Program-made: the position numbers and the translations under genes
The notes under the pieces: model-generated
What the model was told of the DNA's origin: nothing
Databases searched by the model: none
What the model saw: the letters and a program-made list of their open reading frames with translations, nothing else
Virus record (IMG/VR): IMGVR_UViG_2541047885_000002
Coordinates: 1-26,915 of that record
Reading direction: 5' to 3' (one strand)
DNA from: a virus
Taxonomy: Duplodnaviria > Heunggongvirae > Uroviricota > Caudoviricetes
Length of the DNA stretch: 26,915 bases
Shown here: positions 3,917 through 7,350 of the stretch, in pieces
Layout: each line of letters starts with the position of its first letter
Numbering within the stretch: position 1 is the stretch's first letter

Positions 3917-4565
3917 TGGCAGCAAATACCGAAATATTTGGGTAGTTGGCGATCTGCACGGATGCTACACGAACCTGATGAAAAAACTGGAGACGATAGG
4001 ATTCGACACCAAAAAAGACCTGCTTATCTCGGTTGGCGATTTGGTCGATCGCGGTACAGAGAACGTCGAATGTCTGGAATTAATCACATTCCCCTGGTTC
4101 CGAGCTGTACGTGGAAACCATGAGCAAATGATGATTGATGGCTTATCAGAGCGTGGAAACGTCAATCACTGGATGCTTAATGGCGGTGGCTGGTTCTTTA
4201 ATCTCGATTACGACAAAGAAATTCTGGCTAAAGCTCTTGCCCATAAAGCAGATGAACTTCCGTTAATCATCGAACTGGTGAGCAAAGATAAAAAATATGT
4301 CATCTGCCACGCCGATTATCCTTGTGACGAATACGAGTTTGGAAAGCCAGTTGATCATCAGCAGGTAATCTGGAACCGCGAACGAATCAGCAACTCACAA
4401 GACGGGATCGTAAAAGAAATCAAAGGAGCGGACACGTTCATCTTTGGTCATACGCCAGCAGTGAAACCACTCAAATTTGCCAACCAGATGTATATCGATA
4501 CCGGCGCAGTGTTCTGCGGAAACCTCACATTGATTCAGGTACAGGGAGAAGGCGCGTGGGCATAA
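3894..4565 (+). CDS. ninI: NinI, Ser/Thr protein phosphatase (lambda-PPase, metallophosphoesterase)
   Basis: Starts [28 protein letters not shown] with the GDLHG, GDLVDRG and GNHE metallophosphatase motifs; SD GGAG upstream of ATG 3894. The track's longer ORF from 3819 is rejected as an upstream in-frame extension. Confidence 0.93.
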
Positions 4566-5074
4566 GAGAACTAAACCTCACCAAAGAACAGCATGAGTGG
4601 CTGAATGGCTGGCTTGAACTGTGGGGCGCATGGGTTTATTCAGGTCGTCTGGAAAAGCGCATGAGCAGCGTAATAGCGAAGTTCATGGAGAGCGTAGAGC
4701 CGGGAAGAGTTATGACAAGGCCAATGTGCAATGATGATGATGGAATGTTGATTTCTCAGGTCGTCGATTCCGTCATGTACATTGACAAAAAAGCCTTTGG
4801 CATCCTCCTCAGCTACTACGCTCATGGTTCATCTAAGCGAGCAATTGCATCCTACTATCACGCGACTGCAAAGCCACGCAAGATGTGTGGACGTGGTGGC
4901 GAGGGATGGAGAAAACCTTCACTGGCAACCTGTAGAAACGAAATTGACGACATCCTGAAAGCGTCATTATTTGTTTTATACCAGCCAATGCAAAATGCTT
5001 TCAAAATGCGTAAACGTGTTGAGAAAGTTAAGCATGTTGCTGTTAAAAGCCTTGACATGCAATTAGCCATTTAG
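4556..5074 (+). CDS. Q: Late antiterminator Q (phage 21/933W-type, not lambda-type)
   Basis: Position directly after ninI and directly before a promoter-terminator pair. N-terminal LELWGAW resembles the LERWGAW motif I recall from Q of 933W/H-19B. Start taken as GTG 4556 after GGGAGAAGG; the exact start is uncertain. Confidence 0.7.
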
Positions 5075-5081
5075 CCATAAT
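5052..5081 (+). promoter_or_regulatory. Candidate late promoter PR' (sigma70), overlapping the 3' end of Q
   Basis: TTGACA (5052-5057), 18-bp spacer, CATAAT (5076-5081). Location matches PR' of lambdoid phages, where the qut site overlaps the promoter. Confidence 0.6.
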
Positions 5082-5122
5082 ATTCACATATGCTGCTGCT
5101 TTTGCATTCAGCAACCATCACA

Positions 5123-5146
5123 AGCCCACCTCCTGTGGGCTTTTTT
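5123..5146 (+). terminator. Intrinsic terminator, candidate tR' (target of Q antitermination)
   Basis: Stem GCCCAC (5124-5129), loop CTCCT, stem GTGGGC (5135-5140), then TTTTTT; about 60 nt downstream of the predicted PR' start. Confidence 0.75.
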
Positions 5147-5268: not shown

Positions 5269-5781
5269 ATGAAAGAAATAAAATTAACGCCAGAAATGGT
5301 GCTTTCTGTTGTTGATTACAATCCATCATCAGGCGACTTTCACTGGAGATGGAGGCAGGGGAGAGAGAGGACCACTTTGACATGGAACTCTCGTTTTGCT
5401 TTCAAGAAATGCTCATCAATAAATTCTGATGGGTATTTAATGATTATGATTAATGGTAAAGCATGCCCTGCTCACAGACTGGCATGGTTGATTGTTTATG
5501 GCACCATGCCCGATGGTTTTATTGATCACATCAACAGGGTAAGAACAGATAACCGGATATCAAATCTTCGTCTTGTCACTCATTCCGAAAATATGCAAAA
5601 CAGGAAAATTCAGAAGAATAATAAATCTGGATACCGTGGCGTGTCTTGGGATGCTAAGTACGGGAAATGGAGAGCAAGAATTAATGCGTCTGGAAAGTGT
5701 ATTAACCTTGGATACCATGACACTGCCGAACTTGCCGCTGCGGCTTTTGAGGCAGCCAGAATGAAATATCATACCGTTTAA
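5269..5781 (+). CDS. HNH endonuclease with C-terminal AP2-type DNA-binding domain (moron)
   Basis: HNH core ...AHRLAWLIVYGTMPDGFIDHINRVRTDNRISNLRLVTHSENMQN... and AP2-like SGYRGVSWDAKYGKWRARINASGKCINLGYHDTAELAAAAFEAA. SD AAGGTAA upstream. Confidence 0.8.
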   Translation: MKEIKLTPEMVLSVVDYNPSSGDFHWRWRQGRERTTLTWNSRFAFKKCSSINSDGYLMIMINGKACPAHRLAWLIVYGTMPDGFIDHINRVRTDNRISNLRLVTHSENMQNRKIQKNNKSGYRGVSWDAKYGKWRARINASGKCINLGYHDTAELAAAAFEAARMKYHTV

Positions 5782-5787
5782 AGATGT

Positions 5788-5832
5788 AAGCTGCCGTTAG
5801 TGACTCTTAAGTTGCAACGGTGGCTTTTTTTA
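5788..5832 (+). terminator. Putative intrinsic terminator after the HNH gene
   Basis: AAGCTGCCGTT (5788-5798) pairs with AACGGTGGCTT (5816-5826) including two G-U pairs, 17-nt loop, then a T7 run. The large loop lowers confidence. Confidence 0.45.
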
Positions 5833-6080
5833 TTTGCACAACAGGTAAGAGCATTGAGTCGATAATCGTGAAGAGTCGGCGCGCCTGGTTAGCCAGTGCT
5901 CTTTCCGTTGTGCTGAATTAAGCGAATACCGGAAGCAGAACCGGATCACCAAATGCGTACAGGCGTCATCGCCGCCCAGCAACAGCACAACCCAAACTGA
6001 GCCGTAGCCACTGGCTATCCTGAATTCATCAGTGATAGTTACGCTGCGGCCTTCTACACATGACCTTCGTGAAAGCGGGT

Positions 6081-6115
6081 GGCAAGAGGTTGCGCTAACA
6101 ACCTCCTGCCGTTTT
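6081..6115 (+). terminator. Strong hairpin plus U-tract in the late leader (candidate terminator or RNA structure)
   Basis: GGCAAGAGGTTG (6081-6092), loop CGCTAA, CAACCTCCTGCC (6099-6110) giving 11 of 12 pairs, followed by GTTTT. Confidence 0.5.
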
Positions 6116-6215
6116 GCCCGTGCATATCGGTCACGAACAAATCTGATTACTAAACACAGTAGCCTGGATTTGTTCTATCAGTAATCGACCTTATTCCTAA
6201 TTAAATAGAGCAAAT

Positions 6216-6231
6216 CCCCTCAATGAAGGGG
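6216..6231 (+). promoter_or_regulatory. Hairpin sequestering the holin Shine-Dalgarno sequence (sdi-like)
   Basis: CCCCT (6216-6220) pairs with AGGGG (6227-6231), loop CAATGA; the 3' arm is the holin SD, 6 nt before ATG 6238. Confidence 0.5.
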
Positions 6232-6237
6232 TAGAGC

Positions 6238-6441
6238 ATGTACCGTATGGACAAAATCAGAGAATGGTTCAGTTACAGCTTCGGAGGACTGACTGCGATG
6301 GGTGGCATTCTCTCCCTGAATGACTGGGCTGTCATCATTGGTATTCTTTGTACTGTCGGCACATTTGGCATCAACTGGTACTACAAGCGCAAAGAGCGCG
6401 AGGACAGATTGAATGGCAATGTCACCGGCACTACGAAATAG
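6238..6441 (+). CDS. Holin, phage-21 S-like class II pinholin with dual-start motif
   Basis: 67 aa, two TM segments (Gly-rich [17 protein letters not shown] and [19 protein letters not shown]), charged C-terminus, N-terminus MYRMDKI paralleling S21 MKSMDKI. Immediately upstream of the endolysin. Confidence 0.8.
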
Positions 6442-6916
6442 CGTAATAGCGGCGATAAGTGGCGGGGCTATTGCTATAGCATCTGTGTTAATCACTGGAC
6501 CAAGTGGTAACGATGGCCTGGAAGGTGTCAGCTACATACCATACAAAGATATTGTTGGTGTATGGACTGTATGTTACGGGCATACAGGAAAAGACATCAT
6601 TCCCAGTAAAACGTATACCGAAGCAGAATGCAAAGCCCTCCTGAATAAAGACCTTGCCACGGTCGCCAGACAAATTAACCCGTACATCAAAGTCGATATA
6701 CCGGAAACAACGCGCGGCGCTCTTTACTCGTTCGTCTACAACGTGGGGGCTGGCAATTTCAGAACATCGACGCTTCTTCGCAAAATAAACCAGGGCGATA
6801 TCAAAGGCGCATGTGACCAGCTACGTCGCTGGACATACGCTGGCGGTAAGCAATGGAAAGGGCTGATGACCCGTCGTGATATTGAGCGTGAAGTCTGTTT
6901 GTGGGGGCAGCAATGA
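6413..6916 (+). CDS. SAR endolysin (T4-lysozyme-like, phage 21 R-type)
   Basis: N-terminal Gly/Ala-rich signal-anchor-release segment ([17 protein letters not shown]) followed by the lysozyme core [25 protein letters not shown]; near-identical to R21 as I recall it. Confidence 0.9.
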
Positions 6917-7350
6917 GCAGGGTAACCGCGATTATCTCCGCTCTGGTTATCTGCATCATCGTCTGCCTGTCATGGGCTGTTAATCATTACCGTGATAACG
7001 CCATTACCTACAAAGAGCAGCGCGATAAAGCCACATCCATCATCGCTGATATGCAGAAGCGTCAACGTGATGTAGCAGAACTCGACGCCAGATACACAAA
7101 GGAGCTTGCTGATGCTAACGCGACTATCGAAAGCCTCCGTGCTGATGTTTCTGCTGGCCGTAAGCGCCTGCAAGTCGCCGCCACCTGTGCAAAGTCAACG
7201 ACCGGAGCCAGCAGCATGGGCGATGGAGAAAGCCCAAGACTTACAGCAGATGCTGAACTCAATTATTACCGCCTCCGAAGTGGAATCGACAAGATAACCG
7301 CGCAGGTTAACTACCTGCAGGAATACATCAGGACGCAATGCCTGAAATAA
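6913..7350 (+). CDS. Rz: Rz (i-spanin)
   Basis: [34 protein letters not shown]... matches the lambda Rz N-terminus; ATGA overlap with the endolysin stop. Confidence 0.9.
7112..7297 (+). CDS. Rz1: Rz1 (o-spanin lipoprotein) embedded in the +1 frame of Rz
   Basis: [36 protein letters not shown]: lipobox LAVSAC followed by a Pro-rich segment; SD AAAGGAG 7 nt upstream; lies wholly inside Rz. Confidence 0.75.

Follow-up and report, generated by a model that had tools for sequence, protein, structure and literature searches.

How does a holin gene that opens with two in-frame ATG codons apportion translation between them when the ribosome-binding site of the first is folded into a hairpin? The question is raised by IMG/VR virus record IMGVR_UViG_2541047885_000002 (Caudoviricetes), positions 1 to 26,915 of which were analysed as one stretch and are referred to here as the window. 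Positions 6216-6249 of its plus strand read CCCCT-CAATGA-AGGGG-TAGAGC-ATG-TAC-CGT-ATG and lead into an open reading frame (ORF) of 67 codons, 6238-6441, which opens with MYRMDKI as the initial annotation had stated and shares its frame with the ATGs at 6238-6240 and 6247-6249. We consider it reasonably likely that translation of a dual-start holin gene of a P22-like/lambdoid E. coli prophage is initiated within this locus and that the hairpin limits initiation at Met1 relative to Met4. The elements concerned are the following.

6216-6220, plus strand: 5′ arm of the hairpin, CCCCT, with the same letters as the 5′ arm of lambda sdi.
6221-6226, plus strand: hairpin loop, CAATGA; natural variants of the window cassette have CAATAA or CTATGA.
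6227-6231, plus strand: 3′ arm of the hairpin, AGGGG, which is the Shine-Dalgarno (SD) sequence of ATG1, at -11 to -7 with a spacer of 5-6 nt.
6232-6237, plus strand: single-stranded TAGAGC, occupying the place of lambda's unusual SD UAAG (second start).
6238-6240, plus strand: ATG1, from which the 67-aa form, the predicted antiholin, would begin; kept in 35 of 35 distinct relatives.
6241-6246, plus strand: codons Tyr2 and Arg3, of which Arg3 gives the long form its additional positive charge.
6247-6249, plus strand: ATG4, where the 64-aa form, the predicted holin, would begin; it matches the family-wide N terminus M-[DE]-K.
6238-6441, plus strand: class II holin gene of the HP1 family (PF16080), 67 aa.

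The N-terminal extension thus adds a positively charged residue, Arg3. The initial annotation had described two in-frame Met codons separated by a single basic residue; the two Met codons stand, and the spacer proved to be the dipeptide Tyr-Arg.

Relatives of the holin were collected by a degenerate-pattern scan with one genome per species, which yielded 40 loci at 50-82% protein identity and 35 distinct leader/start sequences. They come from about 15 enterobacterial genera, including Citrobacter, Raoultella, Yersinia, Photorhabdus, Serratia, Pectobacterium, Yokenella, Kluyvera, Klebsiella, Phytobacter, Erwinia, Izhakiella, and Symbiopectobacterium. In all 35 distinct sequences a pair of ATGs was present with one or two codons between them, as M-x-[RK]-M in 24 and M-[RK]-M in 11. 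The codon immediately 5′ of the second ATG always specified Arg or Lys (AGA in 18, CGA in 7, CGT in 5, CGC in 3, and AAA in 2), and position 2 of the extension was variable (T, Y, Q, A, K, or I) or missing. Given that the basic residue has been kept through five codons, with synonymous and two-step changes between CGN and AGA, the extension appears to be translated and selected, and Met1 is likely to be used. In a profile search of 1.84 billion representative sequences, many of the 50%-cluster representatives began with M-[DE]-K at profile position 4, and the N-terminal extension was present in only a subset of the family. Met4 is accordingly the ancestral start, since many members lacking the extension begin there and the hol gene of Haemophilus phage HP1 has no dual start.

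At locus L159 (Xenorhabdus szentirmaii, about 2429-2470) the dual-start motif is not in frame; ATATGTGTGTGGACAAATAC at this site suggests a frameshift relative to ATGCGTATGGACAAATAC of Photorhabdus, and the locus may be a decayed copy. A holin variant of about 86-89 aa is found at L134-L155 and L160-L162 (Kluyvera, Citrobacter, Klebsiella, Phytobacter, and Symbiopectobacterium); it has the C-terminal transmembrane domain (TMD) and the KEREDRLNG tail in common with the window holin and a different, longer N-terminal part (MTRMSTIYSRLSYGTG...AKAYA...), yet retains both M-x-[RK]-M and an SD hairpin.

All 35 divergent loci retain both ATGs and, between them, a basic residue encoded by any of five codons, which bears directly on the main rival explanation, in which a single start is productive and the hairpin merely throttles holin synthesis to set the time of lysis, no antiholin being made. 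Such conservation would be unexpected if either ATG were unused. Several features of the window are nevertheless in keeping with a single start. AGGGG, the sole strong match to the anti-SD in the leader (best duplex, -7.0 kcal/mol), lies within the hairpin, and ATG4 is without a good SD: TAGAGC (6232-6237) offers only a weak GAG located 10 nt 5′ of ATG4, with an opening cost of 2.5 kcal/mol, and no anti-SD duplex of -3.5 kcal/mol or lower centred on TAGAGC was found in the window. The annotation pipeline PGAP likewise lists one 67-aa product (database entries are mostly 67 aa and in some cases 64 aa), and in lambda the rate of holin translation alone sets lysis time. Against these points stand the position of Met4 at the family-wide N terminus and the presence in many relatives of a second SD (GAGG or GGAG) properly spaced at 5-9 nt 5′ of the second ATG. 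We therefore regard a single productive start as unlikely, and use of both starts as probable.

With regard to the hairpin, RNAfold predicted a 5-bp stem between CCCCT and AGGGG that closes a 6-nt loop, in the minimum free energy (MFE) structure as well as in the centroid; this bears out the initial description of the SD as the 3′ arm of a hairpin with CCCCT. The stem-loop spans -22 to -7 relative to ATG1, and two weak outer G-C pairs may lengthen the stem. The isolated hairpin has an energy of -6.8 kcal/mol, compared with -8.7 kcal/mol for lambda sdi. The MFE of the 36-nt leader was -8.7 kcal/mol for the window, -9.7 for lambda, and -10.2 for the Salmonella P22-like phage SPN9CC, and the predicted cost of opening the SD region was 8.7, 9.5, and 10.1 kcal/mol, respectively. 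No Rfam family matched the leader.

To compare the leaders of related holins, a single covariance model for all of them was built, but it kept the sequence register and did not bring lambda-type and phage 21 S (S21)-type hairpins into one structural register. The leaders were therefore compared lineage by lineage and in a MAFFT alignment not fitted to structure. In most relatives whose leaders lack the lambda sequence, the SD, as a rule GGAGG, still forms part of a 3′ hairpin arm, and the inner stems differ by lineage: UCCGA/UCGGA, UCCGU/ACGGA, CGC/GCG, CCGA/UCGG, CCCC/GGGG, GCC/GGC, and CCAUC/GAUGG. In the MAFFT alignment 80% of cells could pair, compared with 39-54% when the 3′ partner was slid by 1-3 columns, and 14 double-sided changes were present, a count reached by 1 of 500 shuffles. 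The 34 scorable holin leaders span seven leader types grouped by eye, and the controls were the starts of 153 other ORFs with an SD from those loci. Over positions -36 to -1 the median MFE of holin leaders was -11.3 kcal/mol, compared with -5.2 for controls (Mann-Whitney P = 2e-15), and the SD was paired with upstream sequence at a median probability of 0.99 compared with 0.41 (P = 2e-11). All 34 leaders (-6.1 to -13.7 kcal/mol) were more stable than the control median, and the predicted SD opening cost was alike in all leaders, at 6.6-10.1 kcal/mol. The leader of the S21-like essD gene also has its SD in a stem, CACCCGC/GCGAGGUG (z = -2.84), which is nearly the same as that in front of Raoultella and Citrobacter PF16080 holins; the loop differs. 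Together with the retained codons, these comparisons indicate that the hairpin and the dual start are very probably real and under selection.

Second copies or remnants of the leader hairpin followed by ATGACC or ATGCAT were observed in Citrobacter and Kluyvera at L145 1883-1921, L141 1673-1706, and L152 1207-1243, each located 450-1150 nt 5′ of the real holin start. At L145, where ORFs were listed, no long holin ORF follows the copy. The copies look like duplicated leaders left behind by insertion of genes between leader and holin.

The initial annotation had called the hairpin reminiscent of lambda sdi, and the likeness turned out to go further than that, for the two leaders are the same: by blastn, window 5825-6233 aligned with lambda (NC_001416) 44775-45181 at 96.6% identity over 409 nt.

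5825-6233, plus strand: late-operon leader, orthologous to the lambda tR′-S interval and containing the sdi hairpin (blastn).

The homology ends 4 nt 5′ of ATG1, just past the 3′ arm of the hairpin. In a four-way alignment of the window, lambda, SPN9CC, and BTP1, no difference was seen through AAATCCCCT, and agreement resumed at GGGGTA; between the two, the loop letters differ, being TATT in lambda, CAATGA in the window, and CAATAA in SPN9CC and BTP1. From these alignments, the hairpin of the window is best described as the orthologous lambda sdi stem with another loop, joined to an unrelated holin gene. Similarity to lambda returns in Rz, where window 6913-7161 is 78% identical to lambda 45966-46235, and neither the holin nor the endolysin gene between leader and Rz is related to lambda S or R, so that the replacement extends from the sdi hairpin to the start of Rz.

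A stem that is lambda sequence, with the join at the loop or 3′ arm, could have been carried along by cassette recombination behind the lambda leader, without any selected role for the window holin. Only two cassettes stood behind this leader among the matches listed (at least 119 IMG/VR loci), that of lambda S (MKM...) and that of the window holin (MYRM...), as such hitch-hiking would allow. We consider this explanation very improbable, because homologues behind unrelated leaders possess SD hairpins of their own, of similar predicted strength and with other stem letters. In addition, leader variants in 80 loci selected by protein fell in the loop or flanks or lengthened the stem, and none lay within the 10 stem nucleotides, although the numbers are small. 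One IMG/VR variant of the window cassette, L205, has GGGGTGGAGC in place of GGGGTAGAGC (TGGAGC for TAGAGC); the change makes a GGAG located 10 nt 5′ of ATG4, and this GGAG would offer the second start a stronger SD.

An inverted repeat at this position might also serve another purpose, as a minus-strand terminator, an RNase site, or an mRNA stabiliser. A pattern scan did flag a terminator-like minus-strand site at 6231-6216, followed by ATTTGCTCTA. The scan returned three such sites compared with 1.1 expected by chance. The T tract is poor and no minus-strand gene converges on 6216-6231, where antisense ORFs are spurious, and on these two grounds we rejected the terminator reading. The hairpin always sits on the SD in relatives, and this, together with the lack of an Rfam match, makes any of the three purposes exceedingly improbable.

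The product of the gene matched PF16080 (Phage_holin_2_3) at 75.1 bits (cut-off, 28.8; E = 4.4e-21). Its match to PF04971 (Phage_holin_2_1), the family of phage 21 S, scored 19.5 bits, under the cut-off of 26, and covered the TMD2 region only. Two TMDs are apparent, at residues ~10-28 (rich in G/A/S/T and weakly hydrophobic) and ~30-49. Mean hydropathy is 0.78 for TMD1, of which 47% is G/A/S/T, and 1.34 for TMD2; EssD is similar, in composition only. The genes that act with or on the holin gene are as follows.

6413-6916, plus strand: signal-anchor-release (SAR) endolysin (PF00959), near homologue of phage 21 R21 and DLP12 RrrD, overlapping the 3′ end of the holin gene.
6901-7350, plus strand: Rz i-spanin (PF03245, E = 1e-36).
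7106-7297, plus strand: Rz1 o-spanin, inside Rz in the +1 frame (PF06085, E = 2e-19).
4556-5074, plus strand: Q-type late antiterminator (PF06530, E = 1e-25), which drives transcription of the lysis cassette.

The endolysin matched PDB entries 4ZPU (RrrD, E = 1e-103) and 3HDE (R21, E = 8e-103), with 3HDF also being R21; it is ~95% identical to RrrD in the aligned region and carries an N-terminal SAR domain in the form of an A/G/S-rich helix (55% G/A/S/T). Its ORF also opens with two in-frame ATGs (M-A-M, 6413-6421), of which the second, at 6419, is the point from which R21 and RrrD align; from either ATG it overlaps the 3′ end of the holin gene, whose stop lies at 6441. Given the R21-type SAR endolysin partner, the weakly hydrophobic TMD1, and the pinholin behaviour of HP1 Hol, the window holin is most likely a pinholin.

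Four elements control the starts of lambda S, according to a preprint (bioRxiv 10.1101/2025.05.14.654169) that summarises Chang 1995 and Blasi. The SD GGGGG at -12 to -7 serves Met1 (antiholin S107); the unusual SD UAAG at -6 to -3 serves Met3 (holin S105); a stem-loop at -21 to -7 governs access to GGGGG (also attributed to Blasi 1989/1990); and an intragenic stem-loop at +31 to +47 is the fourth. The window has the first and third of these, both orthologous, a weak counterpart of the second (UAGAG), and no conserved fourth. Its leader resembles that of lambda S in the 96.6% identity, which includes the 5′ arm CCCC(U), in having the G-run SD of the first ATG in the 3′ arm, in a single-stranded purine stretch between stem and ATG1, in a basic residue in the extension, and in similar hairpin strength. 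The proteins, in contrast, are unrelated: lambda S is a class I holin of 107 aa with three TMDs, and the window holin is a class II holin of 67 aa with two. The starts of lambda are two codons apart (M-K-M), those of the window three (M-Y-R-M); the lambda loop is shorter, at ~4-5 nt (TATT/TTATT), than CAATGA of the window; and lambda S is partnered by a soluble transglycosylase, the window holin by a SAR endolysin.

The parallel with an S21-type MKSMDK start, which had also been proposed, was upheld in E. coli K-12, whose S21-like essD opens with MKSMDKL. S21 of phage 21 (S71 antiholin and S68 pinholin) and its DLP12 homologue EssD share with the window holin class II topology with two TMDs, an M-x-x-M-D-K-[IL] opening, one basic residue in a 3-residue extension, an SD in a stem-loop (essD), a G/A/S/T-rich TMD1, and a downstream SAR endolysin, R21 or RrrD, that is essentially the same. 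They differ in belonging to PF04971 and in having the basic residue as Lys at position 2, whereas the window has Arg at position 3. Compared with S21, the window holin has a longer and more charged N-terminal tail and no strict GxxxG. A stem-loop over the SD of S21 is reported to regulate the ratio of its starts, a finding said to be that of Barenboim et al. in 1999.

The founder of PF16080, Hol of Haemophilus phage HP1, resembles the window holin in Pfam family and in its two TMDs, and its gene likewise precedes and overlaps a SAR endolysin gene. Pinholin action of HP1 Hol with its SAR endolysin has been shown experimentally, and the gene is reported to lack a dual-start motif, with no antiholin known (PMC7312051). 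The holin of the Yersinia entomophaga lysis cassette has also been reported without a dual start.

On the reading that we favour, late mRNA would carry the lambda leader including the sdi stem-loop, whose 3′ arm is the SD serving ATG1. The closed hairpin would block access of the 30S subunit to this SD and so hold down initiation at Met1, with the result that the 67-aa MYRMDK... product, bearing the extra N-terminal positive charge of Arg3, would be made in limited proportion. Initiation 9 nt further 3′, at Met4, would give the 64-aa MDK... product, the active and lethal holin. For lambda and phage 21, secondary accounts describe the longer forms as antiholins whose additional basic residue prevents TMD1 from changing its topology until membrane depolarisation. 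By analogy with S107/S105 and S71/S68, the long form of the window holin would be an antiholin whose added charge slows the change of topology or the oligomerisation on which triggering depends, an assignment that we hold somewhat less firmly than the use of both starts but still judge the better guess. The short form, as a pinholin, would then depolarise the membrane and release the SAR endolysin. That the hairpin controls the long:short ratio, and that the short form makes pinholes, are steps that we infer.

A number of observations weigh against this interpretation. First, statistics for the hairpin as a single sequence are weak. The 36-nt leader gave z = -2.07, with 8 of 200 dinucleotide shuffles folding equally well, and the 81-nt context gave z = -0.47; when only the C-rich upstream 30 nt were shuffled and the SD was held fixed, p was 0.42 for the window. 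The experimentally validated sdi of lambda did no better in such tests (z = -1.86; upstream-shuffle p = 0.33), and SD pairing was non-significant for most sequences in the upstream-shuffle test, which has low power because most arrangements of a C-rich leader can pair with a G-rich SD. Judged from its sequence, the hairpin taken alone thus appears modestly unusual, and it is the comparative evidence that carries the case; in that comparison the relatives are phylogenetically non-independent and the control set includes unverified ORFs. Second, the SD for Met4 is poor in the window and the strong SD lies 14-15 nt from ATG4, so that a closed hairpin might lower both starts and not shift their ratio. 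Third, RNAalifold found no conserved pair among nine homologues over -6 to +78, and hence no lambda-like intragenic stem-loop. Fourth, the holin sequence, by reading, contains no strict GxxxG, and its short form (MDKIREW) has an N-terminal tail of 6-7 residues with four charges in front of TMD1. In S21 the extra Lys of the long form limits exit of TMD1, and the 3-residue N-terminal tail of S21-68 is described as critical; the TMD1-exit mechanism may therefore not be directly transferable to the window holin, whose short-form tail is longer. Finally, HP1 Hol, the sole characterised member of PF16080, is without a dual-start motif, and two products have not been reported experimentally for the window holin or any PF16080 member.

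The cassette is not confined to this record. A 351-nt stretch around the holin gene was 100% identical in several complete E. coli genomes, with 82 of 5426 genomes matched over 80% or more of the query, and was 94-97% identical in many Salmonella P22-like phages, including SPN9CC, BTP1, ST104, and Emek, in which the gene is labelled just holin or class II holin. Upstream, between Q and the lambda-type leader, lies a gene for a homing-endonuclease-like protein with HNH_3 and AP2 domains (5269-5781, plus strand). SPN9CC and BTP1 have tRNA-Asn and tRNA-Thr in its place, and the window has no tRNA; the endonuclease gene has the look of a mobile element inserted into the late leader. A near-consensus promoter-like site on the plus strand at 5052-5081 (TTGACA-18-CATAAT, matching at 11 of 12 positions) extends over the end of Q, and ~40 nt 3′ of that site, at 5122-5142 (plus strand), stands a GC-rich hairpin of 8 bp with a T run; the two are candidates for the pR′ late promoter and its Q-dependent terminator. 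In size and order, the larger downstream ORFs resemble the head and injection module of P22-like phages.

From lambda S, P22 13, and phage 21 S, dual-start holins and sdi-type control have been familiar since 1989-1999, and the literature searched contained no description of a dual start or hairpin for the PF16080 holin of the window. The case presented here is that of a class II holin of the HP1 family, with a conserved dual start of its own, placed behind an orthologous lambda sdi leader, and it would not surprise a specialist. It is mildly new that the device, covarying hairpins included, is retained throughout the enterobacterial part of the HP1 holin family, while HP1 itself is without it, and that each of two leader types serves different holin families, with the mosaic joint at the hairpin. 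The combination of dual start and SD hairpin is thereby extended to a third holin family, and the current understanding of lysis control is left unchanged.

Lysis timing determines burst size and phage fitness, and the dual-start/sdi arrangement is the textbook case of one gene specifying both a protein and its inhibitor. Annotation pipelines give a single product for this gene in a cassette that is common in E. coli and Salmonella P22-like phages, and the natural series of hairpin variants could be used to probe how stem stability relates to the antiholin:holin ratio. More tentatively, and with somewhat more doubt than confidence, we propose that an SD hairpin, a proximal second SD, and M-(x)-[RK]-M-D-K form a portable lysis-timer module. 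Such a module would be selected across S21/PF04971 and HP1/PF16080 holins on at least two unrelated leader backbones (CCCC/GGGG and CACCCGC/GCGAGGUG), exchanged at the hairpin, and held to an SD opening cost of ~7-10 kcal/mol. If this is true, hairpin strength would be a tunable and evolvable setting of the antiholin:holin ratio across the enterobacterial pinholin clade, one that the founder HP1 does without.

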